Below are positions 4,858 through 25,901 of a DNA stretch of 64,000 nt, in pieces (position 1 is the first letter of the stretch; each line of letters opens with the position of its first letter). The notes beneath the pieces were generated by a model. The model worked only from the letters and a program-made list of their open reading frames with translations. It was not told the DNA's origin and did no database searches. A program made the position numbers and the translations under genes. The stretch is from Candidatus Nomurabacteria bacterium. Lineage in GTDB: Bacteria; Patescibacteriota; Minisyncoccia; Phycocordibacterales; UBA9973. The DNA lies in assembly GCA_031425235.1 (NCBI GenBank), contig JANPIZ010000001.1, positions 27,731-91,730 of the forward strand, read 5' to 3'.

Positions 4858-4864
4858 GTATTTA

Positions 4865-5899: not shown

Positions 5900-6050
5900 T
5901 TAAGTTTTATTTTTAAAATTTTCTTACTTAAATTATACATTAGTTACACATTGATTTCTATACTATTTTTGAATGTTTTGCTCAGGCCAATACGGCAAAT
6001 TAATTTGTTTAAATTATACGTGTTGGTATATACTGTATACATAAAAACAC

Positions 6051-6593: not shown

Positions 6594-6596
6594 AAT

Positions 6597-6630
6597 AAAA
6601 AATTCTCGTTTTAAACGAGAATTTTTTATT
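6597..6630. terminator. Bidirectional rho-independent terminator between convergent genes
   Basis: aaaaattctcgttt-taa-acgagaatttttt forms a perfect stem flanked by an A-run and a T-run. Confidence 0.7.
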
Positions 6631-9600
6631 GCGCTGGAGTTGTATCTGGTTCTGGACCTTCGCTTGGAGCTGTCTCCGGAGGTGCGGTAATTTCTGGTGG
6701 TGTATCTTCTGTTGTTGTGTCGGGTGGTGTTACATTTTCAGTTGGTGTTTCTTCGGGTGTAGAAGTTTCACCTCCACTACCTCCAGAACTTTCGTCAGGA
6801 GTTTGTGTGCTTCCTCCATCTTCATCTCCACTATTGTCGACATTGATAACTTCGAGTCCATCCCCAAGGCTCTCGAAAACTTGCACGTCTTTTACCCCAA
6901 GGGCAATCCATGAGAAGCGAATATTTTGTGGTGCTTTTTTGTTGAGTATGATCGTGAATCCAGTTTCATCTTTTTCTATCACAAGTGATGTTATATTTTG
7001 TGCAAGTAAATCATCGATTGAAGTTTCATCCATGTTGTCGGTAGTTTCAAAAGATATGGACGCAGTCACTACTGGAGTTGTCGCATACGGTTCTTCAAAT
7101 TCGACTCGTACAAATTTATCTCCTTCTTTTACGAGAGCAAACCCTGCGGTATCTTTGTTGAATATTGGCGGAAGATTAAATTCAACCTGAGAATCAAAAC
7201 TAATTTTTGCCGGTAAGTCCGGTGTGCCTTTTAGTATTGTAAGCCCCGCAAATGTCGCATCACCAGATACGTTTAATGTATCAGTGCTAACGACTTGAGC
7301 TGTTAAGCGAGGAGTGACGACTTCAAGTCCGGCCACGATACGATCAGTAAGTAATTCAGAAATACTGAATGCTCCTTCTGTATCTTCTTGGTCACTCAAT
7401 AATTTAGCGAGTATTGAAGCTGAGTCTTCTACTGAACCATTCAATGTAAGTCCGGTATAATTATTTAAACTCTCCCCATTAAAATATCCTTGTTCAACGT
7501 ACACCATCACAGTTGCTTTGTTTGAGCCAGAAGTCCAAGACTCTATCGCTTTACCGATAACAACTCCAGCTTTTGTAGCTTTTGTCGCTTTACCCGGTTC
7601 GCCAGACGTAGTAACGTAATCACCAGGGAAAATAGATGCTGAATTTGAGGCAACTTTTACAGGTACGCGTCCGTTTAGAGCAACTGGCATTGGATTGTCT
7701 ACATCTTTTATATTGTGCCCAGCAGAAGTAAAGTCTCCGTAGTTATCAGAAACAATACCGATTGTATTTGTTTGATATGCTTTTGAAGTTTTTTCTAATT
7801 TAGTTATCTGGCCTTTTACTTTATTCCAATCAATATTGCCATCAGTAACATCATATGTAGTCACCATTTCATTACCTGTCGCCACGATATCTCCAAATTC
7901 CACGCCATTTTCTACGGGGTACATTTCTGCATAGTCAGCAGCTGGAGCAGCGTTACAATCCCGTATTTCATATGCCGTACCAGCCGTAGGGCCAGTAGCA
8001 TTTGCTAGACTAGAACAAACAGCGTTTGTAGAGGCCGTTCCCGAAAGACCCATACTCACCACACCTGCGCTTGTAACTTTAAATTTCTGGACACTCGCAT
8101 TTTTGAAATCAAGGAAATCTCCCGTGAATGAAGTTGAGCCTCCACTTACTGCCATGTCTATCAAAATAGCGTCCCCAGTAAATGCAGATGTATCATGATA
8201 TACGCTTAGCATTGATGCTGCAGAAGTCATCGAACCGGTATAGAACCTCGCTACATCTCCTTGGGTTGTACCTGTATTTTCTGCATATAAACCAGCCGGA
8301 ACAGCAACACCTCCAGCCGTACCCGCTGTGATAGCTTGTACACCATATGTTCCAGCAATAGCACGAAGCCCAGTATTAGTACCTGCCGTATTACTTCCAG
8401 CGTTTGATGTGATATCAATACCACGAACAAGATTTGCGAGAGATGTGTTGTCAACTGTACGTATGGTTTCCCCTACCATTGTGTTCGAATTTGTTGTCGG
8501 CGCGTTATTGAAAACAAAACGATTACCGACTTGAACAAATCCAGCGGTTCCTCCGTTGTTAAAGGTATAATCACCATGGATACCAGCTATGGCAGTAGTA
8601 GATCCATTCGAAGCCATAGTGCTGACTATGTTTAATTTTGCAAGTGTTCCAGATGTGAGTGTAGTACCGCCTATCAATACTTGACCACCATCTACATTCA
8701 AACCAATGTTTGCAGTAGTTGCTCCTGAAGCATTTACATATAACCCAACGTTTGTTCCCGAAGTTGCGTTTGTATGAGTATTAGAAATTCGTGCTCCGTA
8801 TGTAGTAATAGCATTTGTAGCCGTTGCGCCGGTTGTCAAAATATTTAATGCTGTTTGAGAAGCTGCGGCCGCTGTACCTGAAACTTGGAGATCTACTAAT
8901 TTTCCTGTTGTTAGTGTTGAAGATGCAGCATATAATCCTGTTCCTGTAGTTAGCGAATTAGCGTTCAAAGCTAATGCAGATGTTGTGGTTGTCCCCGTAA
9001 TAACACCCGAAGTAATCTGAACTGAGCCTGTAGTGTTCGGAGTTAAGGTTATGTTATTACCAACTAAAGCCAAGTCTGCTGCAGTCGCAGTAATTGTTAG
9101 CCCGGCAGCAGCAGTAAGAGCAGTACCGAGACCAGTTATGTTATTCGAGTTCATTCCAAGAGCTAAGTTAGAGAAATTGTATTCATCAGCTCCTGCAATT
9201 TGAACATTCAAAGTTTTACCAGTAACTGTATTAATGTTCATGTCTCCAGTGTTATCACGGAAGATTGAGTTGACTGTTCCTGCTGGAGCACTCGCATCAT
9301 CTGAGGTGAAAGTTAAGGCATCATTAGTAGTGTCATCAACCTCTCCAGAGAATGAGCCGCCGCCACAGCCAGTACAAGTTCCGCTAATTACTACATCACC
9401 ATCAAACCGAGCTGTGCCTGCATCTACCCAGAGAGCATACGCGTTTGTTAAGGCTATATTTGCACCCCCGTCAGCAGGAGCCCCTGCGATATAAACATTC
9501 GCTGCATTGGTAATGGTAACGGCATTAGTGGAATCAAAAGTAGGAATACCAAATGAGTTGGCGACTCCATTAGTACGGGTGCCTGCCCCGTCGCTATCGG

Positions 9601-11389
9601 TATAAGTAGCAGCTGTTGCTTGCAATTGAATTCCGTTTAAACCCCAAGCTGCCTGAGACATGTTACCAGCTAGTTCAAGACGGGCGTCTGGAGAAGCTTG
9701 ACCAATACCTACACTACCACTAGCAAGGATTCTCATAACTTCATTAGTGCCACTTGCCTGCAAGTCTCCGCCTCCATTAAAGGAAAAGTGAGATGCAGAT
9801 GGTACATAGAACTGAGTTTGAAACGCATTTATTCCAATACCATAATTACTACCCGCACCGCCGTTATACAAACTGATTCTGTCCCCCACACTAGAACCGT
9901 TAAAAGAGAGTGGGGATCCTGGAGTTGCATTACCAATGCCGACATTACCGCCATTATCTAACACTAGCTGGTTTGAAACTCCATCTACATTCATCACTAA
10001 GTCACCATTAGAAGTCATTTGGAAATCTGTATAGACAGTTCCATCAGCTTGTGTTAAGCGCAGTTGCGGATTGGTCGCGTCCAATATGTCTAACTTGCGG
10101 TCTGGACCGGTGGTATTAATACCGACATTGGCTCCACCAGTAGATTGCAAAATTAGAGCAGTTCCATTTCCTGTTATTTCGTTTGAAAGAGATCCCCAAG
10201 GAGAGTATGCGCCCATACCAATATCTCCACCACGAACCCCGCCAGACGCTAACACATCCCCTAATACTTGTAACGCGACTAGTGGACCAGCAGTATTAAT
10301 ACCTACTCTATTATTAGTAGCATCTATAGATAGAACGTCAGTGTCGAAAGACAAACCGTTCACGCCACCACTTAACACAATGTTGGTGTCGTTTGAGAAT
10401 GTCCATGTCCCTGCATTAGAAGAAGTAAGGTTTCCGTTTGATGCTACCTGGAACAAGTCACCAGAACCCACTGTCAACAGCGCCGCAGGAGTTGCGTCGC
10501 CGATACCGACGTTACCACCATTGAAAATGGCAGCATAGTTAGCAGTCGTACCACCAGATGCTGTAACATACAAACCTACGTTAGTGGAAGTGGTGCCAGT
10601 ATGAGTGTTAGAAATTTGAGCACCATATGTTGTAATACCAGAAGTAGCGTTAATGCCTTGCAAAGAAATATTCAAACCAGTTTGAGAAGCGCCAGCCGCC
10701 GTACCGTTTGAAGAAAGATTTAGTAATGTTCCGGTAGAAAGTCCGTTTCCATTAACACTAGCCAGGATGCCACTCGTCGCACTGTTAGCCGTCAAATTTA
10801 ATAACCCAGTACCAGTATAAATTCCAGTATTAGTAAGTGCGATATCTGCACCGCTCGTGTTAGTTGTGCCGACAAAAACTTTTCCATTACCATACACACC
10901 ATTTGCTGTGATCGCGAATGCTGATGAAACAATTTGTGGGCGAGGAGAAAGGCTTTCAAAACTTTCTGCTCCATCCCCTGGTGCACACGTAGCTCCAACC
11001 TTTGTTGCAACTTGCACATCTACAAAAGCTTGGTCGTCAGTAAATGTGAGGTCAAGAGTATCGCCACCCGCTGCTACATCGCCGATACTTCCATCAAATA
11101 CTCCAAGACGCGTGACGATGGTCATCGTAGACGGAGAACCTGTTGGCCAAATTTTTGAGCCACCTGTCGTTGCATCATAAATAGAAAATTTATAACAATA
11201 ATCTGTACCCCCGGAAGTCCCGAGCAAGTTACCACTTGAATCCATAAGTCGTCCTTGGAAATTTATTATCTTTGGAACTCCAGCTGTTGCATGCAGTAAC
11301 GTGGGAGATAAAAAAGCAGAAATTATAAAAATTAAAATAAAAATAGAATAGAGAGAACGTATTTTTTTGAAAAAGGAAAAGGTTTTCAT
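6626..11389 (-). CDS. Giant secreted surface protein (1587 aa) with a signal peptide, long Gly/Thr/Asn/Ser-rich beta-strand repeats and a C-terminal Pro/Thr/Glu-rich tail
   Basis: Intact ORF in the track. The N-terminus [36 protein letters not shown] is a signal peptide. Low-complexity TGT/NGN/SGG repeats run throughout. The C-terminal 120 aa are acidic and Pro/Thr-rich ([44 protein letters not shown]). No LPXTG motif is present. Confidence 0.85.
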
Positions 11390-12978: not shown

Positions 12979-12997
12979 ACATAGGAGTTTCCTATGT
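12979..12997. repeat. REP-like palindrome copy 1 (ACATAGGAGTTTCCTATGT)
   Basis: A 19-bp near-perfect palindrome with an 8-bp stem. It overlaps the stop codon of the RAYT gene. Confidence 0.8.
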
Positions 12998-13627
12998 ATT
13001 GTCAAAATTGAGCCATTCAAACAACTCTTTTTTGTGATCAATTGGATTTTTGAAATAAGTTGGAAACTCTTTTGGGTTTATGATTTTAAATTTTTTGTTA
13101 ATATATTCTTTTAAACTCGAATACCTATAATTAAAAATGTATTCTGATAAATTGTTAGTTTTTCTATTTTTTGTCTCTCTCCAATTTTTATCTATTAGTT
13201 TTGCTGGATTTAAATGTATGTATGAATAAAGATATTTTAAATACGTATCTTTACTTACATGACTTGATTTAAATACCCCTTCATATAATTTCCCTGTTCT
13301 TTCGTACTTTCTATTAAAGTACATAGAATATCCAGTTAGTAACTTGCGCATATATGTAGAAATACCATTTTCTATTTTTTCATGAGCCAATATGTGAAAA
13401 TGATTTGGCATTAAACAAAAAGCTCCTATATCAACAATTGTCTCTCCTCGCTCAAAAAACTCGTCAATATCTCTCAATATAATACTTTTTTTAGTATTAC
13501 AAATATCCATCAAAAACAAGAAGTGCTGGTAATCTTGTTCATCTAGAAATATTATTCTTTTCTCTGTGCCACGATTATATAAATGATAATATTCTCCTGG
13601 AACAAAAACTTGTTTTCTTAGAGCCAT
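12992..13627 (-). CDS. REP-associated tyrosine transposase (RAYT) / IS200-IS605-like Y1 HUH transposase
   Basis: 211 aa. It has the HUH motif (MPNHFHIL) and a catalytic Tyr region (YLKYLYSYIHLNP). The N-terminus GEYYHLYNRGTEKRIIFLDEQDYQHFLFLM fits the Transposase_17 pattern. Confidence 0.75.
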   Translation of the reverse strand: MALRKQVFVPGEYYHLYNRGTEKRIIFLDEQDYQHFLFLMDICNTKKSIILRDIDEFFERGETIVDIGAFCLMPNHFHILAHEKIENGISTYMRKLLTGYSMYFNRKYERTGKLYEGVFKSSHVSKDTYLKYLYSYIHLNPAKLIDKNWRETKNRKTNNLSEYIFNYRYSSLKEYINKKFKIINPKEFPTYFKNPIDHKKELFEWLNFDNT

Positions 13628-13641
13628 CTTTTAAGCATAAC

Positions 13642-13670
13642 ATTTCACATAGGAGTTTCCTATGTGAAAT
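13642..13670. repeat. REP-like palindrome copy 2 (extended: atttcACATAGGAGTTTCCTATGTgaaat)
   Basis: It has the same 19-bp core as copy 1, extended to a 13-bp stem. It lies about 25 nt upstream (minus orientation) of the RAYT start. Confidence 0.8.
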
Positions 13671-13675
13671 AAAAA

Positions 13676-14254
13676 TTAACCGAGTAATTCAAATTCTGTG
13701 TAGCCAAGTTTGCGCATCTCTATATAAACATTTTGAATTAATTTTATATGTCCAGTCATAAGTTTGAGCTCATTTTCTTCTTCTTCATTTAAATTATTCT
13801 TTGTTTCTAGTTCAAAAAACCTCGTACTATAATTTCGAAGATTCCATTCTTCCAATGAACCAAAATCATAGCCCAATTTTTCTATTACTTCATCAAAAGT
13901 ATTATGTAATTTTTTTGCCTTATCTGATTGCTTTTTCCTTTCTGGGTCATTTTGTATATCAACTACTGCACGAGGATCTAACAATTTTTCATCCCACTCT
14001 CGTCGTTTAAATCCTCCGGGAAAATGTCCAAGAAAACTATTTTGAAAACTTAGGAAATAAGCTGTGTCACTTGCCTTTGATAAGAATTCGATTTGACGCT
14101 TATACATATTTTCATAAAAAATGTCTCCTTTTTTTATTTCTAGTTCTTTTTTGGCATAGTTAAGGCTTGTTTCTCTTGAAGAGCGTAAATCATTTGTAAG
14201 TGAATCCGGACTGTAAACCTCACTTGCTTCGTTTATGGATCCTTCTATTGGCAT
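13676..14254 (-). CDS. Hypothetical protein (192 aa, cytoplasmic, charged) carried between REP copies 2 and 3
   Basis: Intact ORF in the track. I recognise no motif in it. REP palindromes flank it on both sides. Confidence 0.5.
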   Translation of the reverse strand: MPIEGSINEASEVYSPDSLTNDLRSSRETSLNYAKKELEIKKGDIFYENMYKRQIEFLSKASDTAYFLSFQNSFLGHFPGGFKRREWDEKLLDPRAVVDIQNDPERKKQSDKAKKLHNTFDEVIEKLGYDFGSLEEWNLRNYSTRFFELETKNNLNEEEENELKLMTGHIKLIQNVYIEMRKLGYTEFELLG

Positions 14255-14271: not shown

Positions 14272-14304
14272 ATGGTTTACATAGGAAACTCCTATGTAAA
14301 CCAT
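14272..14304. repeat. REP-like palindrome copy 3, inverted core (atggtttACATAGGAAACTCCTATGTaaaccat)
   Basis: A 33-bp near-perfect palindrome whose core spacer GGAAACTCC is the reverse complement of GGAGTTTCC in copies 1 and 2. It contains the TAG stop and the last two codons of the transketolase C-terminal subunit gene. Confidence 0.8.
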
Positions 14305-15344
14305 GTTTTTCTTGCTGAAACTTTCTTCACTGCGCCTTTGATGCTTTCTTTTCCCATACCATAATGTTCTATGAGTTCATCAGGGGTACCACTTTGACCA
14401 AATATATCTTTGACTCCTATAAATTCTATTGAAGCTGGGAAGTTTTGCGCGAGAACTTCAGCGACTGCGCTCCCCATCCCCCCTGCTATTTGATGTTCTT
14501 CGACAGTAACTATTTTTTTAGTTTCTTTTGCGAGGGCGATGATCGCCTCGCTGTCGATTGGCTTAATACTCGCAAGATTTAATACCTTTGTTTTTATACC
14601 TTCCATTTCGAGTTCCTTCGCGGCAATAATCGCTCGATATAAAAGCCCACCTGTAGCAATAATACCAACTTCGGCAATTCCTACGTCTGGCATCCAATAT
14701 ATTTCTGCCTTACCCAAACTAAAAGGAGTTTCTTCTGTGGTTATAATTGGGGTTTTTTCTCGTGCCAAGCGTAGGTATGCTGGCTTCCCTGTTTTTGCTA
14801 AAGCAAGTGTCGCCTTTTTTGCCTCGATAGCATCACATGGGGATATAACATCCATGTTGGGAATTATGCGCATCAAAGCTATGTCTTCGAGTGCCTGGTG
14901 AGTGCCACCATCAGGACCGACAGAAATGCCCGCATGTGAACCCACTATCTTTACCGGCCTGTCGTTGTAGGCAATAGTCGTACGTATCTGCTCCCAGTTT
15001 CTACCAGGCGAAAACATCGCATAGGAAGAACAAAAAGGAATTTTCCCCATCGCCGCCATACCTGAAGCAACTGTCGCTAAGTTTTGTTCCGCGACTCCGA
15101 TTTCAATAAAACGCTCAGGAAATCTATCTTTGAAAAAATTCATCTGGGTAGACTCAGTAAGGTCAGCACACAAAGCAACAACATTTTTATCAGCTTCTCC
15201 AGCCAGCAGTAAGCCCTGCCCAAATCCCTTTCGTATTGGTGCTTGCTCAACATCGTCGTTGAAAAGTTTAGGATTTAATTTTAATTTTGGGTTTAACATT
15301 GATTTTATTAACTCACGCCGTATAGTCATTTTGACGCGGCGCAA
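14292..15344 (-). CDS. Transketolase, C-terminal subunit (pyrimidine-binding and C-terminal domains)
   Basis: 350 aa with the motifs FIEIGVAEQN, GPDGGTHQALEDIA and KPID. Confidence 0.85.
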   Translation of the reverse strand: MRRVKMTIRRELIKSMLNPKLKLNPKLFNDDVEQAPIRKGFGQGLLLAGEADKNVVALCADLTESTQMNFFKDRFPERFIEIGVAEQNLATVASGMAAMGKIPFCSSYAMFSPGRNWEQIRTTIAYNDRPVKIVGSHAGISVGPDGGTHQALEDIALMRIIPNMDVISPCDAIEAKKATLALAKTGKPAYLRLAREKTPIITTEETPFSLGKAEIYWMPDVGIAEVGIIATGGLLYRAIIAAKELEMEGIKTKVLNLASIKPIDSEAIIALAKETKKIVTVEEHQIAGGMGSAVAEVLAQNFPASIEFIGVKDIFGQSGTPDELIEHYGMGKESIKGAVKKVSARKTWFT

Positions 15345-15346
15345 AC

Positions 15347-16228
15347 TTACTCGTGTTCACTCTTAATCTTACCTCCGAGGGTTCGGAGTTCATGAAGTGC
15401 TCTTTTCCCTTGTTCTTTGTCAGGAATACCTACTCCTGGAGCGCCTCCATGCCATTTATAATTCCTCTCAAACTCATGCACTCCTTTGCCAGGTATCGTA
15501 TGCGCAATAATGACTATCGGCTTCCCATAAATCGCCTGCGCTTCTTGCACAGCTTCGTTTAAACCTGTAAAATCATGCCCCCCCACTTCTATTACATGCC
15601 AATTAAATGCACGCCACTTGTCTGCCAGCGAATTAAGAGGCATTATATCCTCCGTAAACCCATCTATCTGAATATTATTTCTATCAACAATTGCAATCAA
15701 ATTTCGTAATTTATTTTTACTCGCGAGCATAATTGCTTCCCAGTTATTTCCTTCATCGAGTTCGCCATCGCCAAGGAAACAATAAATAAATCTATCTTTA
15801 TCTTTCTGGTCAATTCTATCTGCAAGTGCCATGCCGACTGCTTGTGAAAGTCCGGAACCAAGAGGCCCTGAACTATTTTCAAGCCACGGCATGTATTCAC
15901 GATGTGGATGACCTTGGAGACGTGAGCCGAATTTTCTTAGAGTTTTTAATTCTTCCAGCGGAAAATAACCCGCATGAGCCATCGCGGCATACAACACTGG
16001 ACAAATGTGACCATTTGAAAGCACCAGTCTATCGCGTTCTTCCCACATTGGATTTTTAGGATCATGTTTTAGTACGTGAAAATAAAAAAGTGTGAAAATG
16101 TCAGCCATACCGAGTGGCCCCGCAGTATGTCCACTCCCCGCTGCAAGCAACATTTCAATAATACTCTTCCGAATATCATTTGCTTTCAGTTCCAACTCTT
16201 CTATTTTTTTATCAGATAAAAATGCCAT
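15347..16228 (-). CDS. Transketolase, N-terminal subunit (TPP-binding)
   Basis: 293 aa with the motifs GSGHTAGPLGMADI, GHPH and GDGELDEGNNWEA. It lies 2 nt upstream of the C-terminal subunit gene. Confidence 0.85.
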   Translation of the reverse strand: MAFLSDKKIEELELKANDIRKSIIEMLLAAGSGHTAGPLGMADIFTLFYFHVLKHDPKNPMWEERDRLVLSNGHICPVLYAAMAHAGYFPLEELKTLRKFGSRLQGHPHREYMPWLENSSGPLGSGLSQAVGMALADRIDQKDKDRFIYCFLGDGELDEGNNWEAIMLASKNKLRNLIAIVDRNNIQIDGFTEDIMPLNSLADKWRAFNWHVIEVGGHDFTGLNEAVQEAQAIYGKPIVIIAHTIPGKGVHEFERNYKWHGGAPGVGIPDKEQGKRALHELRTLGGKIKSEHE

Positions 16229-16270: not shown

Positions 16271-16516
16271 TTATCCTAATTTATCTAGATTTGGTTTCTT
16301 GTTTATTATTCTTCCGTAAGGCGCATTAGACATATTCCCGTTTTGATCTACTTCATCAGTTGTTATTAATTTTTGATTAGTCTCGCGGTCAAATTCATCC
16401 TGAATCGCACATCCTGTACAACGTGCTCCGGTTTCCGGAAAGACAAGAACTTTTCTGCAATTTAGGCAAACCTCCTTTGTTTGTTTTTCATTACTTGGGA
16501 ATTTATTTTCTTCCAT
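16271..16516 (-). CDS. Small zinc-ribbon protein (two CxxC pairs)
   Basis: 81 aa with CLNC...CTGC. Confidence 0.45.
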   Translation of the reverse strand: MEENKFPSNEKQTKEVCLNCRKVLVFPETGARCTGCAIQDEFDRETNQKLITTDEVDQNGNMSNAPYGRIINKKPNLDKLG

Positions 16517-16527
16517 ATAACTTTATA

Positions 16528-17268
16528 TTATTGAATAATCTCAAATTTTTCTATCGTGCTTATTATATCATCTGTGTTAAAAATTGCAGAACCTATAACG
16601 AGCCGGTCTGCGCCTAGAGCGATAAGCTTCGGTGCTGTTTCCATATTTACTCCGCCATCAACTGAAACAATCAAGTCGGAAAATTTTTCTTTTAATTTTT
16701 TTATTTGATCCAAACATTTTTCGTCAAACTCTTCGCCTTGTGACCCTATACGTGCAATGCCCATAACTTGTATAAAATCTACAGAATTTACTAATGGGAA
16801 AATCTTCTCCACTTCTGTATCTTGATTGAGAGCTATACCTATCTCTATCACATCGCGTACATAACTATCTATTCCCTCTAAGAAATTTTTGAATTCTTCT
16901 ATCCGACCCACTGCCTCTAAGTGAAAAACTATTCTTCGTGGCCCAAGCTTAGTATATATATCAAAATTCTGCACTGCGTCATGTACCATGAGGTCGAGTT
17001 CGAACTCCACATCTTCCCAAAAGGGCATACCTTCTTGCTCATTTAAAATTGCTGCAAAATGGTGCTCCAAACTATTTTCCAAAAAAACTTCCTCATCATT
17101 TTTCCCCAAAAAGGGCCAGGTGGTACTTTTTACAAATATTCCATCGCATATATCAACTTGCACCACAGGTACAATTCCACGAACAAGTGAGATTTTATTT
17201 TTTAAGTCTTCGTAGTTTCTTGGCAATATTGCGGGTATTATTTCAATCATAGAATTAGTATTTTGCAA
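16528..17268 (-). CDS. rpe: Ribulose-phosphate 3-epimerase-like (TIM-barrel) protein
   Basis: 246 aa with IIPAIL, VQVDICDGIFV, HLEA and VDGGVN...GADRLVIGSAIF. It is longer than canonical Rpe. Confidence 0.65.
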   Translation of the reverse strand: MQNTNSMIEIIPAILPRNYEDLKNKISLVRGIVPVVQVDICDGIFVKSTTWPFLGKNDEEVFLENSLEHHFAAILNEQEGMPFWEDVEFELDLMVHDAVQNFDIYTKLGPRRIVFHLEAVGRIEEFKNFLEGIDSYVRDVIEIGIALNQDTEVEKIFPLVNSVDFIQVMGIARIGSQGEEFDEKCLDQIKKLKEKFSDLIVSVDGGVNMETAPKLIALGADRLVIGSAIFNTDDIISTIEKFEIIQ

Positions 17269-17743
17269 TACGTCGTTCGTGTCGTTTATCGCCAGAAAAT
17301 TCAGTTTTTAAGAAAAGCTCTGTGGCAAATTTCGCTTGATCCTCCAATACAAACCGTACGCCGATAGATAAAATATTTGCATCATTATGCATACGTGCAA
17401 GCTTGATTATTTCGAAAGGATCGCCACTTTGTTCTCCTTTCACATCAATTGAGCTTTGCGGTAACATTTCTCCGTAAAATACCGCGGCTCTTGCGCCAAG
17501 AATTCTATTTACAGACATAGCTTCACCTTGACCAGAACCACCTATGACAATACCAAAGCTTCCTTCTTCATTTGCCACACTTTTAGCAACCTCAGAACAA
17601 AAATCCGGATAATCATCATCAGCATCGTATGTGAAAGCACCTTTGTCTATAACTTCATAACCCAAACCAAGCTCAGGTAAATAAGCTTTTAGTTTTTCTT
17701 TTAATTCGTAACCTGCATGATCTGCTCCAATGTAAATTTTCAT
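17255..17743 (-). CDS. rpiB: Ribose-5-phosphate isomerase B
   Basis: 162 aa with MKIYIGADHAGYELK and GIVIGGSGQGEAMSVNR. Confidence 0.85.
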   Translation of the reverse strand: MKIYIGADHAGYELKEKLKAYLPELGLGYEVIDKGAFTYDADDDYPDFCSEVAKSVANEEGSFGIVIGGSGQGEAMSVNRILGARAAVFYGEMLPQSSIDVKGEQSGDPFEIIKLARMHNDANILSIGVRFVLEDQAKFATELFLKTEFSGDKRHERRIAKY

Positions 17744-17784
17744 ATTATTATTATTATATCACGCCTAAATACTAATTATAAACT

Positions 17785-20700
17785 TTACTTTTCCCAAATA
17801 ACGGACAAATCTTTTTGAAAAACATAATTCCCTCCTAGGGCATGAGGGTTTGTAAGGCTAACCTTTTTTGGAAGATTGTCTTTACCTCGAAGCACAGATG
17901 CAGTAAGTGTTTCTTGAAATTTCCCTGGTCGGTTTGTGCTGCGTCCATGAGTCGTATCTACCAAAACACCGTTAAATCCATTTTCTTCTGCAAAATTCGT
18001 AACTTGTTTTGTTATCCATTGATATAATTTTCCTGCTGACACTTTACTAACAATATCAGTCGATGGATTTGGACAATATAATAAATATTTTTTACGCTTT
18101 GATTCCTCCATTTTCAGCAGCATAACTGTGCCGATATTCTTCTTTCTGTCTTCATCAAAAAGTACGAATTCAAAATATTCTTTCTTTTCAAGCATCTTTA
18201 GGTCGGCTGCAATACAAACATCTGCAACCATTCTCGCATGCGCATTCTCACGATTTTTACTAAAATACCCATGAATAGAACGTTTTTTGAGTGACTTCTC
18301 TTGTTCACCAAATTCTTTTTTAAGTACTTCAGTTTCCATTACCTCTTCGTACTTTTCTAGTTCTTTGGAAATCTCTGTGTAGCATTCATTTTGTATTTTC
18401 TCTATTTTCTTATTACTGATATCACCGACGACAGAGTCATCAGACATTTTTTCCATTACTTGCTGAAGAAGCTCGGCAGGAACTGAAGCGAGATCAGTTG
18501 TTTCAAATTTTGCAGATATTTCTTGAGCCATTTCTCGCATGTGTGGAAGGTGTTGAAAACGATTTATCAATGATATCAATACTTTTTTTCGAACAACATC
18601 AATAGTGATTCTTTCTTTAGGAATTTTTTGCAAATCAGTTACAATTTTATTCCCCAATTCTTTGACGTCTGCCTCAGAAATTCCTGTGGACAAGTACTCA
18701 AAAAAAGATTTATCAGGACTTTTCACAACTTTTTGTAAAATCTCCCTGATGGTTTCTTTCAATCGATCACCAAATCTTTCGGCCAGCTCAGAAAGCATTA
18801 TATAATTCTTTTCTATATGGGAACTATCGTCAGTAATTCTATCTCTAGTGCCTTGTACAAATGCTTCGTATTCACCTGAGAGTTGATATGAAAACAAAAT
18901 GTCGGCTATTTCCTCATTTGACTTCTCTTCTAAATACATCAAAAGTTTTCCTTCAAGAGTTTTGGGTGAATCTTCTTTTTTTTCTATTTTTTCATCTAAG
19001 AATTTCTCTAAACTTTCAGGATTTGCTAAAGTACTTAGCTTTTGTAAGCGCCCCGAATATTTTTCTAAAATTTTTAAATCAAGTATTTGCCCTTCTTTCA
19101 CGCGATATTCTGAGACTCCATCTAGTTGAACCCCGTAACCGGTTTTATTGTATTTATAATTCTCAAGGTCAGCGGACCTATCTTCATATTGATCTAAATA
19201 TGCATACGTATCATAATTTCTTTTCGAGTAAACCATTTCACAAGTAATACGATATTCATCTCCTGTTGCGTCAATGGGTTGATTATGGGCAAGTTTTTCT
19301 GCGTTGGTTTTTATATTTTCTAGATATTGATCACGTTTGTCTGTGGAGTTTTTATCTAATACATCTTCATCTAAAAATGTATGCATATAAAGTAATTTTA
19401 AATTCTCTTCGTATGGTGCAACCTCATTCAAAAGTACTTTGACTTTTTCACTCACTATTTTGGCTTGTTTACTATCTTTTGTAACCGCTACCTCCCTTAA
19501 AACACCTTTTATATCACCACTTGAAAATTCTTGTTTAGTTAATGATTCGTTTAATTCTGATATCACACCTATAATACCACTCATTTCAGCTTGAGTAATA
19601 TTTAGTTTGATAATAGGAAACATGTCTTTAGGGGTACCATCGATAAGATTACATAAAGCATCTAAGTTCTCGATATACTTTTTAGCGGCTACTTCATCAT
19701 CTTTCAATAAGTCGAATAAGACGTGGCTGCCTAGTGTTGACTGTGTGAGTGATCTAAGAATCGATGAACGTAGTTCCTCACTTTTATCAACTACTAATAT
19801 GTTTTTAAGAGATTTAAAAACAACAAGCCATTGATCAAGCTCCTCATCAGTAAGTTCTTTGAATTTGCTAAAATATATTGGACTTTCCCGCCACATTGAT
19901 TTCAATCCATCGTTTCCAAAAAGTAAAGTTTGATTTAATTTTTGGATATAATCCTGATACTTTTTTTCTAATTCAAATCCCACCTTACTAAAATCGAAGC
20001 TATTAATTAATTTATATATTGTCTGATCTTTGGTATAGTCAGAATAATCAGCCTCCTTTTTCATTTCAGCTTGATATATTTCAGGAGAAAGATTTTTAAA
20101 CTCTATAAGTTTTACATTATTAGGTGAAATGATTTCAGTTAAATTGGTATATATTTTTTCATCAAATTGTTGGGGTTGAAAAGTGGAATCTTTATGACCT
20201 TTAAAAAGAGCGTTGAGTGTCCTCTTGTCTTTTTCTTTAATCAACCTCTCAACATAGGCTACTTTTGTCTCCGCCTTCATTTTAAACAATAATAAATGTT
20301 CTTGCTTAAATTGTACTGCTTGTTCTATAAGCCAATCATATTCATGTTTTATGATCCAATCTAAAAGATCTCTTCGGGAATCTAAAAATCCTAAATTACC
20401 TGATGTAATTAATTCACGCGCTATATCTAAGCTCTTTATAATACCAAGATCAAGCTCCTCTGAACCTGTAGGAATATATTCCGCCCTGAGATTCATTTTA
20501 AATGGCATTGAGTCTAGTTGAGCTAAGGCAGCCTTACAGTTCGGATCGTCTTTAGGAATTTCGAATTCACCGCTATGTGAACTTTTTGTGACCCAGTTAT
20601 TTTTTATAATTTCTTTGATGACTTCAGGTGTATCAAGATTCAGACTCTGCACTATATTCAATTGATCTTTTACTAGATTCGGATATTTAACGTTTTGTGA

Positions 20701-21519
20701 ATTTTTAACTACATCTCTGATATCAGCACCATCGAAAACCTGAAAAAAATTAAATGCATAGTAAGAATATGGGCTCTCCATTATGAGATCAAATATTTTT
20801 TTGGAATACTTTTCACCCTCTTCAATTGCATTACGTAAAATTGGCTTCAATGTATAATTATTAAATACCTCTTGAGTTAGATAAAATTCTAATAATGATT
20901 CTGGGACAAATTTAGGAATCTCCTCTCTTTCAAAAAAAGCATTGACACCTAAAGCTTGAGTTAGAGGTTCTCCGTAACCAGCAGAAACCAAAAGATCTAC
21001 CTCTTTTGTTGAAAGAGGGCTTTGGTCATTCCAATGACGAACTCGAGACAATAAAGCTCTTAGGCTTTTTTTGTTTATGTCTTCTGCGTAACCTCCACCC
21101 ACATAATTGTCGTGCTCAACCATAAGAGCAAGTTTCGTGCGTCGTAGGAGTCCCGCATCAAGACGCTTAAAGGAATTTTTCTTAAGAGAATCGTCGATGG
21201 TAGCATGGAGGCGATGGAGTAAAACTTCCTTTGCCTTTTCATAAAAAGTAAGTGGTGGAATCAGTATATGGCCTCGCAATTCAAAATGCTTTTTTGTATC
21301 AGCAAAAAGTGAGTCGATGAGTTCTTTTTTATTATCTTCTTCTTCCATCTGCAACTCCATATTCTGAGGAGCGAGAGCATCAGCTATCCGATCAATTTCA
21401 ATTAAAATATTGTCGATCTTTTTTTCAATTTCAATATCGTCAACTTGTTTTTCAGCTGGTTTTTTCTTTTCTATATTTTCCTTGGGTTTAGTTTTCGAAA
21501 GCCGTGATTCAAATCCCAT
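17785..21519 (-). CDS. Large uncharacterised cytoplasmic protein (1244 aa), Lys/Glu-rich
   Basis: Intact ORF in the track with no TM helix or signal peptide. I recognise no catalytic motif in it. It starts 3 nt after the gap stop and is followed by rpiB, so it looks embedded in the gap-PPP operon. Confidence 0.7.
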   Translation of the reverse strand: MGFESRLSKTKPKENIEKKKPAEKQVDDIEIEKKIDNILIEIDRIADALAPQNMELQMEEEDNKKELIDSLFADTKKHFELRGHILIPPLTFYEKAKEVLLHRLHATIDDSLKKNSFKRLDAGLLRRTKLALMVEHDNYVGGGYAEDINKKSLRALLSRVRHWNDQSPLSTKEVDLLVSAGYGEPLTQALGVNAFFEREEIPKFVPESLLEFYLTQEVFNNYTLKPILRNAIEEGEKYSKKIFDLIMESPYSYYAFNFFQVFDGADIRDVVKNSQNVKYPNLVKDQLNIVQSLNLDTPEVIKEIIKNNWVTKSSHSGEFEIPKDDPNCKAALAQLDSMPFKMNLRAEYIPTGSEELDLGIIKSLDIARELITSGNLGFLDSRRDLLDWIIKHEYDWLIEQAVQFKQEHLLLFKMKAETKVAYVERLIKEKDKRTLNALFKGHKDSTFQPQQFDEKIYTNLTEIISPNNVKLIEFKNLSPEIYQAEMKKEADYSDYTKDQTIYKLINSFDFSKVGFELEKKYQDYIQKLNQTLLFGNDGLKSMWRESPIYFSKFKELTDEELDQWLVVFKSLKNILVVDKSEELRSSILRSLTQSTLGSHVLFDLLKDDEVAAKKYIENLDALCNLIDGTPKDMFPIIKLNITQAEMSGIIGVISELNESLTKQEFSSGDIKGVLREVAVTKDSKQAKIVSEKVKVLLNEVAPYEENLKLLYMHTFLDEDVLDKNSTDKRDQYLENIKTNAEKLAHNQPIDATGDEYRITCEMVYSKRNYDTYAYLDQYEDRSADLENYKYNKTGYGVQLDGVSEYRVKEGQILDLKILEKYSGRLQKLSTLANPESLEKFLDEKIEKKEDSPKTLEGKLLMYLEEKSNEEIADILFSYQLSGEYEAFVQGTRDRITDDSSHIEKNYIMLSELAERFGDRLKETIREILQKVVKSPDKSFFEYLSTGISEADVKELGNKIVTDLQKIPKERITIDVVRKKVLISLINRFQHLPHMREMAQEISAKFETTDLASVPAELLQQVMEKMSDDSVVGDISNKKIEKIQNECYTEISKELEKYEEVMETEVLKKEFGEQEKSLKKRSIHGYFSKNRENAHARMVADVCIAADLKMLEKKEYFEFVLFDEDRKKNIGTVMLLKMEESKRKKYLLYCPNPSTDIVSKVSAGKLYQWITKQVTNFAEENGFNGVLVDTTHGRSTNRPGKFQETLTASVLRGKDNLPKKVSLTNPHALGGNYVFQKDLSVIWEK

Positions 21520-21522
21520 TTT

Positions 21523-22569
21523 TTATTTTATAGTATTACCTGTTTTTATAACATGGTCCACGAGTGTATATGTATACCCCATTTCATTGTCATACCAAGC
21601 CATGACTTTTACCAAGTTTCCTCCCACTACTCGAGTCATCTGTAAGTCTGCGATCGACGCATGTGATTCACCTAAAATATCCGAAGACACAAGATCATCT
21701 TCGGTTACAGCGAAGACCTTACTCCATTTTTCACTTGCTGCTGCTTTCTTTAAAATTTCATTCACTTCCTCAGCGGTAGTATCTTTTTTAGAAATAAATG
21801 TCACGTCTACTATAGACCCTGCTGGCACAGGTACTCGAATAGATATACCGTCAAAAAGTCCAGTTAAGTCTGGAAAAGCTTTAGTGACAGCAATGGCCGC
21901 ACCGGTAGAGCTCGGCACTATGTTTTGCGCAGCTGCCCGGCCTTCACGACGATCCTTTTTGCTTGGTCCATCGACGAGGGCTTGCGAAGCAGTATATCCG
22001 TGCACAGTATTTAAAATCGCTTTTTCAATACCAAGTGCTTCGTGAAGAATTCCGATAAGTGGTGAAGCAGCGTTAGTAGTACATGATGCATTTGAAGTAA
22101 TATCGCAGGTACCGAACTTATCTTCGTTCACTGCCATAAGAATAGTTTCCCCTTTCATCTCCACTTGTCCTGAGCTTGTCGAAGGGTCATCTCCTTTTGC
22201 TGGTGCTGAAATTACAACTTTTTTTGCTCCAGCTTTTATATGCGCATCTGCTTTTGCGTAAGAAGTAAATAGCCCAGTGGATTCTACTACGACATCTACA
22301 CCCATATCTTTCCACGGTAACATAGCCGGATCTTTTTCAGCCAAAACTTTTATTTTCTTCCCATCAATGATTATTTCTTGTCCTTCTGCCTTAATGTCGT
22401 GTTTCCATTCTCGGTAGACAGTATCGTGTTTGAGTAAATACGCCATATTAGCCACGTCACCAAGGTCGTTCACTGCTACTATCTCGATTTCAGGTCGCTC
22501 CCAGGCTATTTTCAAAAAAGCCCGACCGATCCGTCCAAATCCGTTGATTCCTACTTTAATTGTTTTCAT
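21523..22569 (-). CDS. gap: Glyceraldehyde-3-phosphate dehydrogenase, type I
   Basis: 348 aa with INGFGRIGR, the catalytic-Cys motif SNASCTTN and WYDNEMGY. Confidence 0.95.
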   Translation of the reverse strand: MKTIKVGINGFGRIGRAFLKIAWERPEIEIVAVNDLGDVANMAYLLKHDTVYREWKHDIKAEGQEIIIDGKKIKVLAEKDPAMLPWKDMGVDVVVESTGLFTSYAKADAHIKAGAKKVVISAPAKGDDPSTSSGQVEMKGETILMAVNEDKFGTCDITSNASCTTNAASPLIGILHEALGIEKAILNTVHGYTASQALVDGPSKKDRREGRAAAQNIVPSSTGAAIAVTKAFPDLTGLFDGISIRVPVPAGSIVDVTFISKKDTTAEEVNEILKKAAASEKWSKVFAVTEDDLVSSDILGESHASIADLQMTRVVGGNLVKVMAWYDNEMGYTYTLVDHVIKTGNTIK

Positions 22570-22685
22570 ATTTTCATTGTATCAAATCAAATTTCCCTTA
22601 TCAATTTTTTCAAAACGCGGCATAAAAATCTGTACCGAAAAAAGTTGATATTTTAGAGATTGCTTTAATATGCTAACATAGAGAA

Positions 22686-25600
22686 ATGGCAGCAGAAAAA
22701 CAGGCACAATTCGTGCATTTACATACACACTCGCATTATTCCCTTCTTGATGGGCTTTCAAAGCTCGAGGATTTGGTCGCTCTTGCCAAGAAATTCAAAA
22801 TGTCTGCTCTCGCTATCACTGACCATGGCAACATGTACGGAGCTATTGAATTTTATAAACTTGCCAAACAGGCTGGAATAAAGCCTATCATTGGAGTCGA
22901 AGCATACGTGGCAAACAGAGGCCGCCTCGACAAAGAGCCCGGTATCGATAACAAGCGGTATCATATGATACTGCTCGCTAAAAATTTAGAGGGGTATAAG
23001 AATTTAATAAAACTTGTTACGCTGTCGCACCTCGAAGGCTTTTATTATAAGCCCCGAATGGACAAAGAAATTTTGCGAAAATACCATAATGGAATAGTTG
23101 CTCTGTCAGGATGTATGGGTGGTGAACTTGCCAAAGCTCTGATGGATAAAGACCTTGAACGTGGTGAAAAAATAGTAGCCGAATACCAAGATATTTTTGG
23201 TAAAGAAAATTATTTTCTTGAAATACAGGACTATGGAAATATTACTGGAGGTACGAAACTCCGCGAGGGGTTGATCGCTCTCAATAAAAAAACTGGTATT
23301 CCGCTTGTAGCCACTATCGATTCTCATTATTCTCATAAAGACGATGCAAAAGCTCACGACACACTTTTATCTATCCAAACAAATTCCGACATCAAAGACG
23401 AGAACAAATTCTCTTTTGGTGATGGAGATTATTCTTTTAAAAACGAAAAAGAAGTAAAAGAAATGTTTAAAGATATCCCTGAAGCAGTGTCAAACACGGT
23501 AAAAGTGGCAAACATGTGTAACCTCGAGCTCGAGCTCGGTAAATGGGTGTTCCCTGATTTAGAAATTGAAAAAGGAAAAACATATAATGAAAAATTGCGT
23601 GAACTTACGTATGCAGGCCTCAAAAGTCTCAACGTCGAAGAAACAAAGGAAGTAAAAGAAAGAGTGGAATATGAACTTGATGTTATTTTTAAAAAAGGAT
23701 ATTCACCCTACTTCCTCGTTGTGGGAGATTTATTACGCTATGCAAAAGAAAATGGAATTTTAACTACAATTCGAGGCTCCGTAGCTGGATCGATGGTCAC
23801 ATATCTTATCGGTATTACCAATGTAAATCCACTCGAATATAAAATTCCATTCGAAAGATTCTTGAATCCATTTCGTCCTTCCGCCCCTGATATCGATATG
23901 GACTTTGCTGACAATAGGCGCGACGAAATGATCGAATATGTAAAGCAAAAATATGGCGAAAATAACGTCGCGCAAATAGGAACATTTGGCACCATGATGG
24001 CTCGTGGAGCAGTGCGTGATGTCGCACGTGCACTCGCTCACCCATATGCGATTGGTGACAGAATTTCAAAAATGATTCCAATGGGTTCTCAAGGCATGCC
24101 AATGACCATAAGCCATGCGATGAAAATAGTTCCTGAGTTAAAAGAAGCATACAATAAAGAAAAAGATACGAAAGAAATAATAGATATTGCTAAAAAACTA
24201 GAAGGTTGTGTGCGACATGTATCAGTGCATGCTGCTGGAGTCGTGATAGCACCACTACCTATTTCCGAATATTCTCCTACACAGTTTGATCCGAAGGGTG
24301 GAAAAATAATAACTCAATACGACATGTATAGTATTGAAGAAGCAGGACTTTTAAAATTCGATTTTCTTGGTATTCGAAACTTAGCTATCCTTGCTGATGC
24401 GGTAAGTTTAGTAAAACGATTTTATAATATTGATATTAATATTGAACGTATACCTCTCGACGATAAAAAAACATTTGAACTCCTCGCCAGTGGACAAACC
24501 GAAGGCTTATTTCAGTTAAACGGTAGTGGCATGACGAGGTACCTCAAAGAACTCAAACCTACTTCCATCCACGATATCAACGCGATGGTAGCCTTATACC
24601 GACCCGGACCTATGGAATCCATCCCTGAATACATCAAACGTAAACACAATCCAAGTCTGATAAAATATATGGATCCGAGAATGAAGAAATATCTGACCGA
24701 ATCATATGGTCTTATCGTCTACCAAGACGATCTGCTGCTCTCGTCTATCGAACTTGCAGGCTACAACTGGGAAGAAGCGGATAAATTCCGAAAAGCGGTA
24801 GGTAAAAAAATCCCTGCGGAAATGGCCGCTCAACGAGAAAAATTAACCAAAGGTATTATTGCAAATGGACAAACACCGGCATTCGCAGAAAAACTCTGGA
24901 AACTTTTTGAACCTTTCCAGGCCTATGGATTCGGTAAGGCACACGCCGCCTCATACGGTAAGGTTGCATACCAAACTGCATACATGAAAGCAAACTATCC
25001 GGTAGAATATATGACTGCTATTCTCACTGCGGAATCCGGCGATGTTGAGAAAATATCTGAAATTATCGACGAATGTAAACATATGAACATTTCTGTGCTT
25101 CCTCCACATATCAATGAAAGTCAGGGAGGATTTACTTGCTTACCGGAAGAACAAGATACAATAATAAGCTTGGAAAATAAAAGTAAAACTATTCGTTTTG
25201 GGTTTTACACAATAAAAAACTTAGGTACCGACATATCGGACGCTATAGTTCGAGAGCGGATGGAACATGGTAAATTTAAATCGATCAGTGATTTTCTGGA
25301 CCGAATCAAACATAAAAATTTAAATAAAAAATCAATGGAAGCCTTGATAAAGTCAGGTTGTATGGATGACTGGGGCGACAGAGGAGTGTTACTCGCAAAC
25401 CTTGAAGGCATGCTCGCCTATAATCACGAAAAAAATAAGCAAAATGAAAACCAGGTTTCACTTTTCGGAGAGTTAAAAGAAGACGTAACATCATTTAAAA
25501 TGAAAGAAGCCAGTGAAGCCACTCAAGCTGAAAAGCTTCTGTGGGAAAAAGAGCTGCTTGGTCTCTACATTTCCGGGCATCCACTTGATCGCCTACGTGA

Positions 25601-25901
25601 AAAATTAGAAAGTAGACAAGTAAACATTAAAAAAATAAAAGCGGAAGGTGAAAACGATATGAAAATTACTATTGCCGGTATTATCGAATCAGTGCGACAG
25701 GTAGTCACTAAAAAAAATGAACGAATGGCTTTCTTGAAAATTGCTGACCTCACTGACTCCATAGAAGCGGTAGCATTTCCTTCAATATTCAAAGAATCAA
25801 TAGATATACTCATACCAGAAAAATGTATAGCTCTGTCAGGAAAAGTTTCAAACCGAAATGGTGAAAAAAGTATTATAATAGAAGCGTTAAAAGAAATTTA
25901 A
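22686..25901 (+). CDS. dnaE: DNA polymerase III alpha subunit
   Basis: 1071 aa. An N-terminal PHP domain (HLHTHSHYSLLDG), the polymerase core and a C-terminal OB fold are present. Confidence 0.95.
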   Translation: MAAEKQAQFVHLHTHSHYSLLDGLSKLEDLVALAKKFKMSALAITDHGNMYGAIEFYKLAKQAGIKPIIGVEAYVANRGRLDKEPGIDNKRYHMILLAKNLEGYKNLIKLVTLSHLEGFYYKPRMDKEILRKYHNGIVALSGCMGGELAKALMDKDLERGEKIVAEYQDIFGKENYFLEIQDYGNITGGTKLREGLIALNKKTGIPLVATIDSHYSHKDDAKAHDTLLSIQTNSDIKDENKFSFGDGDYSFKNEKEVKEMFKDIPEAVSNTVKVANMCNLELELGKWVFPDLEIEKGKTYNEKLRELTYAGLKSLNVEETKEVKERVEYELDVIFKKGYSPYFLVVGDLLRYAKENGILTTIRGSVAGSMVTYLIGITNVNPLEYKIPFERFLNPFRPSAPDIDMDFADNRRDEMIEYVKQKYGENNVAQIGTFGTMMARGAVRDVARALAHPYAIGDRISKMIPMGSQGMPMTISHAMKIVPELKEAYNKEKDTKEIIDIAKKLEGCVRHVSVHAAGVVIAPLPISEYSPTQFDPKGGKIITQYDMYSIEEAGLLKFDFLGIRNLAILADAVSLVKRFYNIDINIERIPLDDKKTFELLASGQTEGLFQLNGSGMTRYLKELKPTSIHDINAMVALYRPGPMESIPEYIKRKHNPSLIKYMDPRMKKYLTESYGLIVYQDDLLLSSIELAGYNWEEADKFRKAVGKKIPAEMAAQREKLTKGIIANGQTPAFAEKLWKLFEPFQAYGFGKAHAASYGKVAYQTAYMKANYPVEYMTAILTAESGDVEKISEIIDECKHMNISVLPPHINESQGGFTCLPEEQDTIISLENKSKTIRFGFYTIKNLGTDISDAIVRERMEHGKFKSISDFLDRIKHKNLNKKSMEALIKSGCMDDWGDRGVLLANLEGMLAYNHEKNKQNENQVSLFGELKEDVTSFKMKEASEATQAEKLLWEKELLGLYISGHPLDRLREKLESRQVNIKKIKAEGENDMKITIAGIIESVRQVVTKKNERMAFLKIADLTDSIEAVAFPSIFKESIDILIPEKCIALSGKVSNRNGEKSIIIEALKEI

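Follow-up and report, generated by a model that had tools for sequence, protein, structure and literature searches.

The described proteins that come closest to the one reported here contain a domain with the fold of the Gcn5-related N-acetyltransferases (GNATs). The protein lysine acetyltransferase Pat/PatZ and the tRNA(Met) cytidine acetyltransferase TmcA end in a GNAT domain whose substrates are macromolecules, behind a large N-terminal region with a domain that is NDP-forming acyl-CoA synthetase-like in Pat and of the helicase/P-loop type in TmcA. The toxins TacT, AtaT and KacT, single-domain proteins of ~160 aa with an adjacent antitoxin gene, set a precedent for GNAT enzymes acting on aminoacyl-tRNA. 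Isocitrate lyase 2 (ICL2) of M. tuberculosis is a large protein with a C-terminal GNAT-like domain, and its role is non-canonical. FemX/FemAB, Aat and the C domain of MprF have a GNAT-type fold that lacks the coenzyme A (CoA) pyrophosphate loop. Here we analyze a gene for a 1244-aa protein at positions 17785..21519, minus strand, of a 64,000-nucleotide stretch of a Candidatus Nomurabacteria genome (contig JANPIZ010000001.1, positions 27,731 to 91,730 of the forward strand), which we call the window.

Patescibacteria, also known as the Candidate Phyla Radiation (CPR), account for a large share of bacterial diversity. Their small genomes are rich in proteins of unknown function, and large unannotated proteins are common in them. 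The 1244-aa protein belongs to an unannotated family that is absent from every library searched and for which literature searches found no description. The best explanation as a whole, which we regard as about evenly balanced, is that this genuine gene encodes an expressed-type cytoplasmic multidomain protein of a CPR-restricted family, which ends in a divergent, acyltransferase-like domain with a GNAT fold predicted from structural models.

An unannotated family with a conserved C-terminal core

The 1244-aa open reading frame (ORF) is a real, intact gene. The ORF listing and its translation give a single unbroken frame from an ATG to a stop codon, in agreement with the first-pass annotation, which had given the same coordinates and left out the strand. 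Full-length homologues are present in many genomes, and the window protein has the conserved family start, M-x-x-x-F-E. The protein is rich in lysine (11.0%) and glutamate (10.2%), as had been claimed, with a net charge of -30. Its highest 19-residue Kyte-Doolittle mean is only 1.12, which argues against a transmembrane helix, and no signal peptide was found; both absences had been noted earlier. We found neither internal repeats nor a paralogue elsewhere in the window. The protein matches no family in Pfam, NCBIfam, PADLOC or PHROGs and no sequence in the PDB, and scans of its relatives against these family libraries yielded nothing usable either. The view of it as a large, soluble, uncharacterised protein is thus upheld in the curated family libraries used, and no known large housekeeping protein matches it. 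The further statement that it has no recognisable motif is upheld for these libraries and gives way for the last ~170 residues, which are predicted to be GNAT-like.

Base composition and substitution patterns are those of a resident gene under constraint. The GC content is 33.8%, the GC content at third codon positions (GC3) is 0.26, within the range of the window genes (0.30 +/- 0.05), and the three codon positions follow the order GC1>GC2~GC3 that other window genes show. Synonymous sites are saturated between the window gene and its syntenic counterpart, L002 (a Saccharibacteria metagenome-assembled genome, or MAG), and the ratio of nonsynonymous to synonymous divergence (dN/dS) was taken instead from a closer, moderately diverged pair of family members, L026 and L028. 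In this pair dN/dS is 0.2-0.3 over the first half of the gene and 0.05 in the next segment, the sole later segment in which dS could be estimated; dS is saturated in the last third. The proportion of synonymous differences between L026 and L028 is 0.36-0.48 in the first half of the gene and 0.65-0.77 in the second, a contrast that may reflect recombination within the gene.

The family is large. A word-index search returned one relative of the window protein, and a search from that relative returned nine more. When a family profile was compared exhaustively with 1.84 billion cluster representatives (clusters at 50% identity), 345 of them matched at E<=1e-3, and 139 of these at E<=1e-30. Listed members are ~1000-3100 aa long, apart from short and apparently partial sequences, and all 345 are Patescibacteria/CPR-type sequences. 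In the collections searched, then, the family is restricted to Patescibacteria. The earlier suggestion that the protein is lineage-specific is borne out at this level and fails at the level of the source genome, since the family fills at least 345 clusters. Full-text literature searches found no description of it.

A scan of one genome per species gave nine family loci, six of them in MAGs of Saccharibacteria, Moranbacteria, Magasanikbacteria or Nomurabacteria, two labelled Gammaproteobacteria and one labelled only 'uncultured bacterium'; a metagenome scan added 26. The two loci with the Gammaproteobacteria label are L007 (CAYLPC010000004.1), in which a gene for a VirD4/TrwB-like coupling protein lies 1.3 kb downstream of the family gene, and L009 (CAYYLI010000008.1), in which a phage-type integrase gene adjoins it. 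These labels could reflect a mis-binned epibiont contig, or transfer.

Three loci of low GC content (22-26%) have a family gene that is open only when TGA is read as sense:

L018, ~5250-7730, TGA-recoded family member
L021, ~3020-5665, TGA-recoded family member
L034, ~4767-8633, TGA-recoded family member

The in-frame TGA codons of these loci sit at conserved glycine columns, which points to code-25 lineages (Gracilibacteria/Absconditabacteria) as their likely source. Such recoding explains why several database representatives have tryptophan at these columns. No relatives were found in IMG/VR viral contigs, in GenBank phages (INPHARED) or in PLSDB plasmids; with GC3 inside the range of the window, this led us to reject an origin as cargo of a phage or other mobile element.

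Four segments of the window protein served as queries in iterative searches of 154 collected family sequences. The results divide the protein into modules, given here in window coordinates (all minus strand):

21388..21519, residues 1-44, charged leader of low complexity (K+E ~30%), beginning M-x-x-x-F-E
20080..21387, residues 45-480, module N, helical-looking, with an invariant Q406-E407-H408
19420..20079, residues 481-700, module M1, a linker and the fastest-evolving part
18400..19419, residues 701-1040, module M2, the conserved core that precedes module C
17788..18399, residues 1041-1244, module C, the most conserved part by alignment, with a GNAT-like alpha/beta fold predicted from ~residue 1080 onward (AlphaFold2 model, Foldseek)

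Among the 154 sequences, M2 was found in 106, C in 118 and N in ~50, and M1 is confined to the three closest. M2 and C occur together and are always C-terminal, with M2 always before C. M2 carries the motifs VYPxRNYNTY, GY..LSGV.GY, EGK, AYQL and YGD..KET. The N-terminal parts are mixed more freely. M2-C is joined to several other N-termini, and module N is fused to a different, longer C-terminus in seven sequences (P0008-P0010, P0078, P0129, P0140 and P0146). An hhalign comparison of module C with this alternative C-terminus gave a probability of 1.6%, so homology between the two tails is not supported. These searches place the core of the family in the C-terminal ~540 aa (M2 + C); the N-terminal ~700 aa are exchangeable and faster-evolving.

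Rates of divergence follow the same division. The window protein and the L002 copy are 44% identical overall, with 34% in N, 30% in M1, 46% in M2 and 76% in C. Neighbouring genes of the two loci are 65-83% identical, except rpiB at 44%. In this comparison the N half diverges far faster than the neighbouring genes, and conservation of the C domain equals that of the enzymes encoded next to it. In an alignment of 25 diverse members, the invariant residues of module C are C1102, Y1115, G1130, P1150-N1151-P1152, N1180, G1192 and N1196-R1197; R1080, F1086, K1088, E1091 and A1095-R1096-M1097 are nearly so.

The predicted fold of module C

We modelled two C-terminal fragments with AlphaFold2 (AF2), using an alignment of five sequences. 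The model of residues 1034-1244 has a predicted template modelling score (pTM) of 0.64, and its per-residue confidence (pLDDT) reaches 70-90 only from fragment residue ~80 onward. In fragment numbering, with E for strand and H for helix, its elements are E48-54, H57-67, (H76-78), E82-89, E94-105, E111-116, H129-146, E151-154 and H166-175, followed at the end by E205-210. The order is b-a-a-b-b-b-a-b-a-b...b, with three antiparallel strands, a long helix and terminal strands. With moderate confidence, this matches the GNAT core topology, beta1-alpha1-alpha2-beta2-beta3-beta4-alpha3-beta5-alpha4-beta6(-beta7). The model of residues 693-1244 (552 aa) is poor (mean pLDDT 57); its M2 part is mostly helical, and its tail, beta-beta-beta-alpha-beta-alpha-beta, has its elements in the order of the shorter model.

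Structural searches point in the same direction. When the model of residues 1034-1244 was compared with the PDB by Foldseek, nearly all of the 50 best-ranked chains had a GNAT fold, with probabilities of 0.94-1.00 and target-normalised template modelling (TM) scores of up to 0.62. NatD (4ua3) was the best match (E 8.7e-4), and the others included meta-AAC0020 (5f46), HAT1 (1bob), the GNAT domain of ICL2, TacT3, AtaT, KKT23, GNA1 and HPA2. GNATs were again the best matches of the 552-aa model, at non-significant scores, and M2 had no credible match in that search. The solved folds closest to module C are those of NatD/Naa40 (4ua3, 7kd7), the aminoglycoside acetyltransferases meta-AAC0020 (5f46) and AAC(3)-Ia (1bo4/6bvc), and HAT1 (1bob).

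The conserved residues fall at suggestive positions of this model. When the alignment is laid on it, the invariant residues map to the beta4-alpha3 loop, the beta5-alpha4 loop and alpha1, which in GNATs are cofactor and substrate sites. In the model, PNP follows beta4, G-x-x-T-N-R-x-G-x-F follows beta5, and A-R-M...C lies on or just after alpha1. By analogy with general GNAT architecture, the PNP and TNR loops would flank the cleft for the acyl donor, and A-R-M...C would be near the acceptor site.

Several results weigh against a GNAT assignment. The Foldseek E-values are marginal (~1e-3 to 1e-2), and the query-normalised TM score is ~0.4. Only two of the five AF2 models converged (mean pLDDT 64 and 63, versus 42-46 for the others), on five sequences, the stretch with the highly conserved motif ENAHARMVADVC has pLDDT <50, and confidence is low in the alpha1 region. 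Pfam scans of 25 individual C-domain sequences at E<=10 gave no recurrent GNAT match; for C as for M2, no family was matched in more than four of 25 members. A profile of module C found no GNAT among PDB sequences, and profiles of the C-terminal half, of C and of M2 gave only chance-level matches there. An hhalign comparison of the C domain with a four-sequence RimI-type alignment had a probability of 0.2%, although this is a weak test because the template alignment is narrow. The acetyl-CoA pyrophosphate loop of GNATs (motif A, Q/R-x-x-G-x-G/A, between beta4 and alpha3) is replaced by P-N-P-S-x4-S-x-V-S. M2 and N have no assigned fold.

Taking both sides together, the last ~170 residues probably have a GNAT-like fold. 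Whether this domain performs catalytic acyl transfer is close to an even question, perhaps slightly on the side of doubt. At the level of the fold, module C looks like a GNAT that has diverged strongly and whose cofactor loop is altered. It is like the GNAT superfamily in the predicted order of strands and helices, in its top Foldseek ranks and in the placement of conserved residues on the predicted cofactor loops. Unlike that superfamily, it has no GNAT match in Pfam, has PNPS...VS in place of Q/R-x-x-G-x-G/A, and forms the tail of proteins of 1000-3000 aa, always behind M2.

The comparison with individual systems is similarly mixed. As in Pat/PatZ and TmcA, a large N-terminal region stands ahead of a GNAT(-like) domain at the C-terminus, and neither a Pat- nor a TmcA-type N-terminal domain was found in the window protein (Pfam, NCBIfam) or in four long members (Pfam). 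TacT/AtaT/KacT-type toxins appear among the fold matches of module C; unlike these small toxins, the family domain is fused to more than 1000 aa and has no recurrent antitoxin-like neighbour. As in ICL2, the GNAT-like domain is at the C-terminus of a large protein, although the 1244-aa protein has no isocitrate-lyase domain. The FemX/FemAB, Aat and MprF proteins resemble module C as modelled in combining a GNAT-type fold with the lack of the CoA pyrophosphate loop, and some family members adjoin cell-wall (mreBC) or tRNA (tgt, hisS) genes. Unlike them, the family has no sequence similarity to these proteins and a sole, weak fold match (6snr, E 1.3), and it shows neither the duplicated GNAT domains nor the coiled coil of the Fem proteins.

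We propose a mechanism that these observations would accommodate. The conserved functional unit would be the helical M2 together with the ~170-residue alpha/beta domain of GNAT fold. This domain would bind an acyl donor in the beta4/beta5 cleft, where the PNP and G-x-x-T-N-R-x-G-x-F loops are predicted to lie, and would pass the acyl group on to an acceptor, either a macromolecule or a metabolite, that M2 and the alpha1-alpha2 region (A-R-M...C1102) hold in place. The exchangeable, fast-evolving N-terminal ~700 residues may serve as a lineage-specific targeting or interaction arm. Donor, acceptor, catalysis and the role of the N-terminus are all inferred here.

Neighbouring genes and competing explanations

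The gene lies in a string of central-carbon genes on the same strand, as the first-pass annotation had reported and Pfam matches bear out:

17785..21519, minus strand, complete coding sequence of the 1244-aa protein (ORF and translation; homologues; purifying selection in a family pair)
21523-22569, minus strand, gap (Gp_dh_N/C; Pfam), upstream neighbour
17255-17743, minus strand, rpiB (Pfam), downstream neighbour
16528-17268, minus strand, rpe (Pfam)
15347-16228, minus strand, N part of transketolase, 293 aa (Pfam)
14292-15344, minus strand, pyrimidine-binding/C part of transketolase, 350 aa (Pfam)
22686-25901, dnaE (Pfam), divergent, upstream
22576..22604, minus strand, sigma-70-like site upstream of gap, TTGATA-17-TACAAT with TG (consensus match only)
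17753..17782, minus strand, sigma-70-like site in the spacer before rpiB, TTTATA-18-TATAAT with TG (consensus match only)

The gap stop codon, TAA, is at 21525-21523 and the ATG of the 1244-aa gene at 21519, so that the 3-nt spacer given earlier is correct. The gene ends at 17785 and the ATG of rpiB is at 17743; rpiB is indeed the next gene, and the spacer is 41 nt, not the 40 nt first given. We found no terminator-like site between gap and the 1244-aa gene. The site at 22576..22604 scores best among the promoter-like sites of the region, whose number does not exceed that in shuffled sequences, and it is a candidate promoter for a transcript of gap and the 1244-aa gene. The site in the spacer before rpiB suggests that rpiB-rpe-tkt may have a promoter of its own.

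A survey of ~30 non-redundant family loci found no conserved neighbour. The arrangement dnaE / gap - X - rpiB - rpe - tktN - tktC, where X is the family gene, occurs only in the window and in L002. In L005 and L010 the order is hisS-mreB-mreC-X-tgt. L006 shares this neighbourhood, with a 582-aa ORF in addition, and there the family gene appears in the gene calls as two ORFs side by side. L017 has X and then tgt at the end of the contig, and in L001 the hisS/mreB/mreC/tgt gene set is rearranged around the family gene. In L011 (4469-9908) the family gene lies between genes for an ABC ATPase and a MacB/FtsX-type permease, with spacers of 4 nt and 30 nt, and looks as if it had been inserted into a pre-existing pair. 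Other neighbours are uvrB, recG, nrdD, pheS, a TRAM/U5 tRNA methyltransferase gene, QueD/PTPS with folP, a C39-like peptidase gene and an alpha/beta hydrolase gene. The family gene is typically co-directional with housekeeping genes on either side, and these differ by lineage, which makes the glycolysis/pentose-phosphate setting local to the lineage of the window. The position between gap and rpiB looks like a lineage-local insertion into a constitutively expressed housekeeping string, with no functional link to sugar metabolism.

Against this background, the alternative that survives best, improbable though we think it, is an effector directed at a host or at competitors. M2-C would be the warhead, as in the TacT/AtaT toxins, both of which are represented among the Foldseek matches, and the exchangeable N-terminal modules would serve targeting or trafficking, with delivery from epibiont to host or in conflict between bacteria. 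The reshuffling of module N and M2-C among unrelated partners would suit such a protein, as would an N half that outpaces the neighbouring genes in divergence, a distribution across the 345 clusters that may be patchy, and the coupling-protein and integrase genes near L007 and L009. The protein has, however, no signal peptide, transmembrane segment or N-terminal trafficking domain known to Pfam, and no small 'immunity' ORF recurs downstream of the family genes, where we find rpiB, tgt, an ABC permease, a hydrolase and others. The genes stand in housekeeping strings rather than in islands, have native composition and are missing from the phage, viral and plasmid collections. There is no second copy in the window, and dN/dS is well under 1 even for the N half.

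Two further alternatives are each less probable still. In the first, the protein would be a tRNA-linked enzyme of GNAT fold, either an aminoacyl-tRNA-dependent transferase of the Fem/Aat/MprF type or a tRNA/aminoacyl-tRNA acyltransferase of the TmcA/TacT type. The missing CoA pyrophosphate motif is shared with the aminoacyl-tRNA-dependent transferases, and FemX is among the weak fold matches of the 552-aa model. Gene neighbourhoods also lean this way: tgt is directly downstream in four loci and two genes off in a fifth, hisS is near several, pheS is upstream in L027, and the TRAM/U5-methyltransferase gene is downstream in L023; mreB-mreC, upstream in three loci, would fit a Fem-like role in peptidoglycan. 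Yet the context with tgt and mreC is that of a single subclade, whose members share ~55% identity with the window protein in the C domain, and is missing from the window, from L002 and from most distant loci. Adjacency is weak evidence in small, densely packed genomes, and the fold matches are mainly CoA-dependent GNATs, not Fem or Aat.

In the second, of comparable standing, module C would be non-catalytic, a ligand sensor or structural domain in a large scaffold protein, as in ICL2, whose GNAT-like domain binds acetyl-CoA and is among the best Foldseek matches (ranks 8, 11, 13 and others). The lack of canonical motif A and the mostly helical, K/E-rich, scaffold-like character predicted for the protein would agree with this. 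On the other side, invariant or near-invariant polar residues (C1102, N1151, N1196-R1197, E1091 and R1096) map to GNAT cofactor and substrate positions, which is more typical of an active site, and the C domain has changed as little as the enzymes of the neighbouring genes. In the context of the model, these residues suggest catalysis rather than sensing alone.

A partnership with the enzymes of glycolysis and the pentose-phosphate pathway, for example as a scaffold or regulator of GAPDH, RpiB, Rpe and Tkt, is very unlikely. The short spacers, the shared strand and the same arrangement in L002 speak for it, as does a gene for the N-subunit of transketolase that lies three genes away on the opposite strand in L033. 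The importance implied for this operon setting does not hold up across the family, since the context occurs in two of the ~30 independent loci, both of them close relatives. A candidate promoter stands in the spacer before rpiB, and elsewhere in the family the gene lies within pairs of unrelated genes, for example the ABC ATPase/permease pair of L011. With the gap/rpiB/rpe/tkt neighbourhood not conserved, the synteny survey largely refutes this alternative.

A decaying or spurious ORF, which the lack of an annotated domain, the low GC content and the low-complexity leader might have suggested, can be set aside as next to impossible, because the frame is unbroken over 3.7 kb, many genomes have homologues of full length, the family pair gives a dN/dS well below 1 in every segment that allowed an estimate, and codon-position GC is that of other window genes; the homologues, the native GC3, the low dN/dS and the lack of viral, phage or plasmid relatives likewise exclude an artefact or a recent transfer.

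The window has other features of note. Transketolase is split into two ORFs (293 aa and 350 aa), as it is in L002, and rpiB and rpe overlap by 14 nt (17255-17268). An 81-aa ORF with no Pfam match (16271-16516, minus strand) lies between rpe and the gene for the transketolase N-subunit; it is not conserved, because rpe and the transketolase N gene are 72 nt apart in L002. A 19-nt hairpin core, ACATAGGAAACTCCTATGT, occurs in three exact copies, at 12979-12997 (minus strand), 13647-13665 (minus strand) and 14279-14297 (plus strand), where the chance expectation is 0. The copies flank an IS200-like Y1 transposase ORF (12992-13627) and a 192-aa ORF without a Pfam match (13676-14254), and the last overlaps the gene for the transketolase C-subunit at its end. 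The array looks like an element of the REP/RAYT or IS200/IS605 type. A second very large ORF, 1587 aa (6626-11389, minus strand), has a GC content of 43% against a window mean of 38%; its sole match is a sub-threshold H-type lectin near the C-terminus, and it may encode a surface protein.

Meaning for Patescibacteria

Within a very small genome, 3.7 kb are given over to this gene. It is probably important, because it is under purifying selection and the family is conserved from Saccharibacteria to UGA-recoding (code-25-type) lineages. The analysis turns an anonymous ORF into a testable enzyme hypothesis and removes a misleading lead toward glycolysis and the pentose-phosphate pathway. It provides three handles on the family: the M2 + C core, the prediction of a GNAT-type fold whose cofactor loop is unusual, and a set of invariant residues to mutate.

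A bolder version of the GNAT-fold interpretation, which we offer tentatively and consider unlikely as it stands, is that M2-C represents a previously undescribed class of acyltransferases restricted to Patescibacteria. Its donor site would have been re-engineered, with the PNP and TNR loops and the invariant cysteine replacing the P-loop-like CoA motif, for a non-canonical donor such as aminoacyl-tRNA or acyl-ACP. The exchangeable, fast-evolving arms at the N-terminus would steer it to macromolecular targets that differ by lineage. If this were true, those targets could be the translation or cell-envelope machinery of the producer or the host cell of an epibiont, and M2-C would be a core tool of the symbiotic lifestyle of the CPR.

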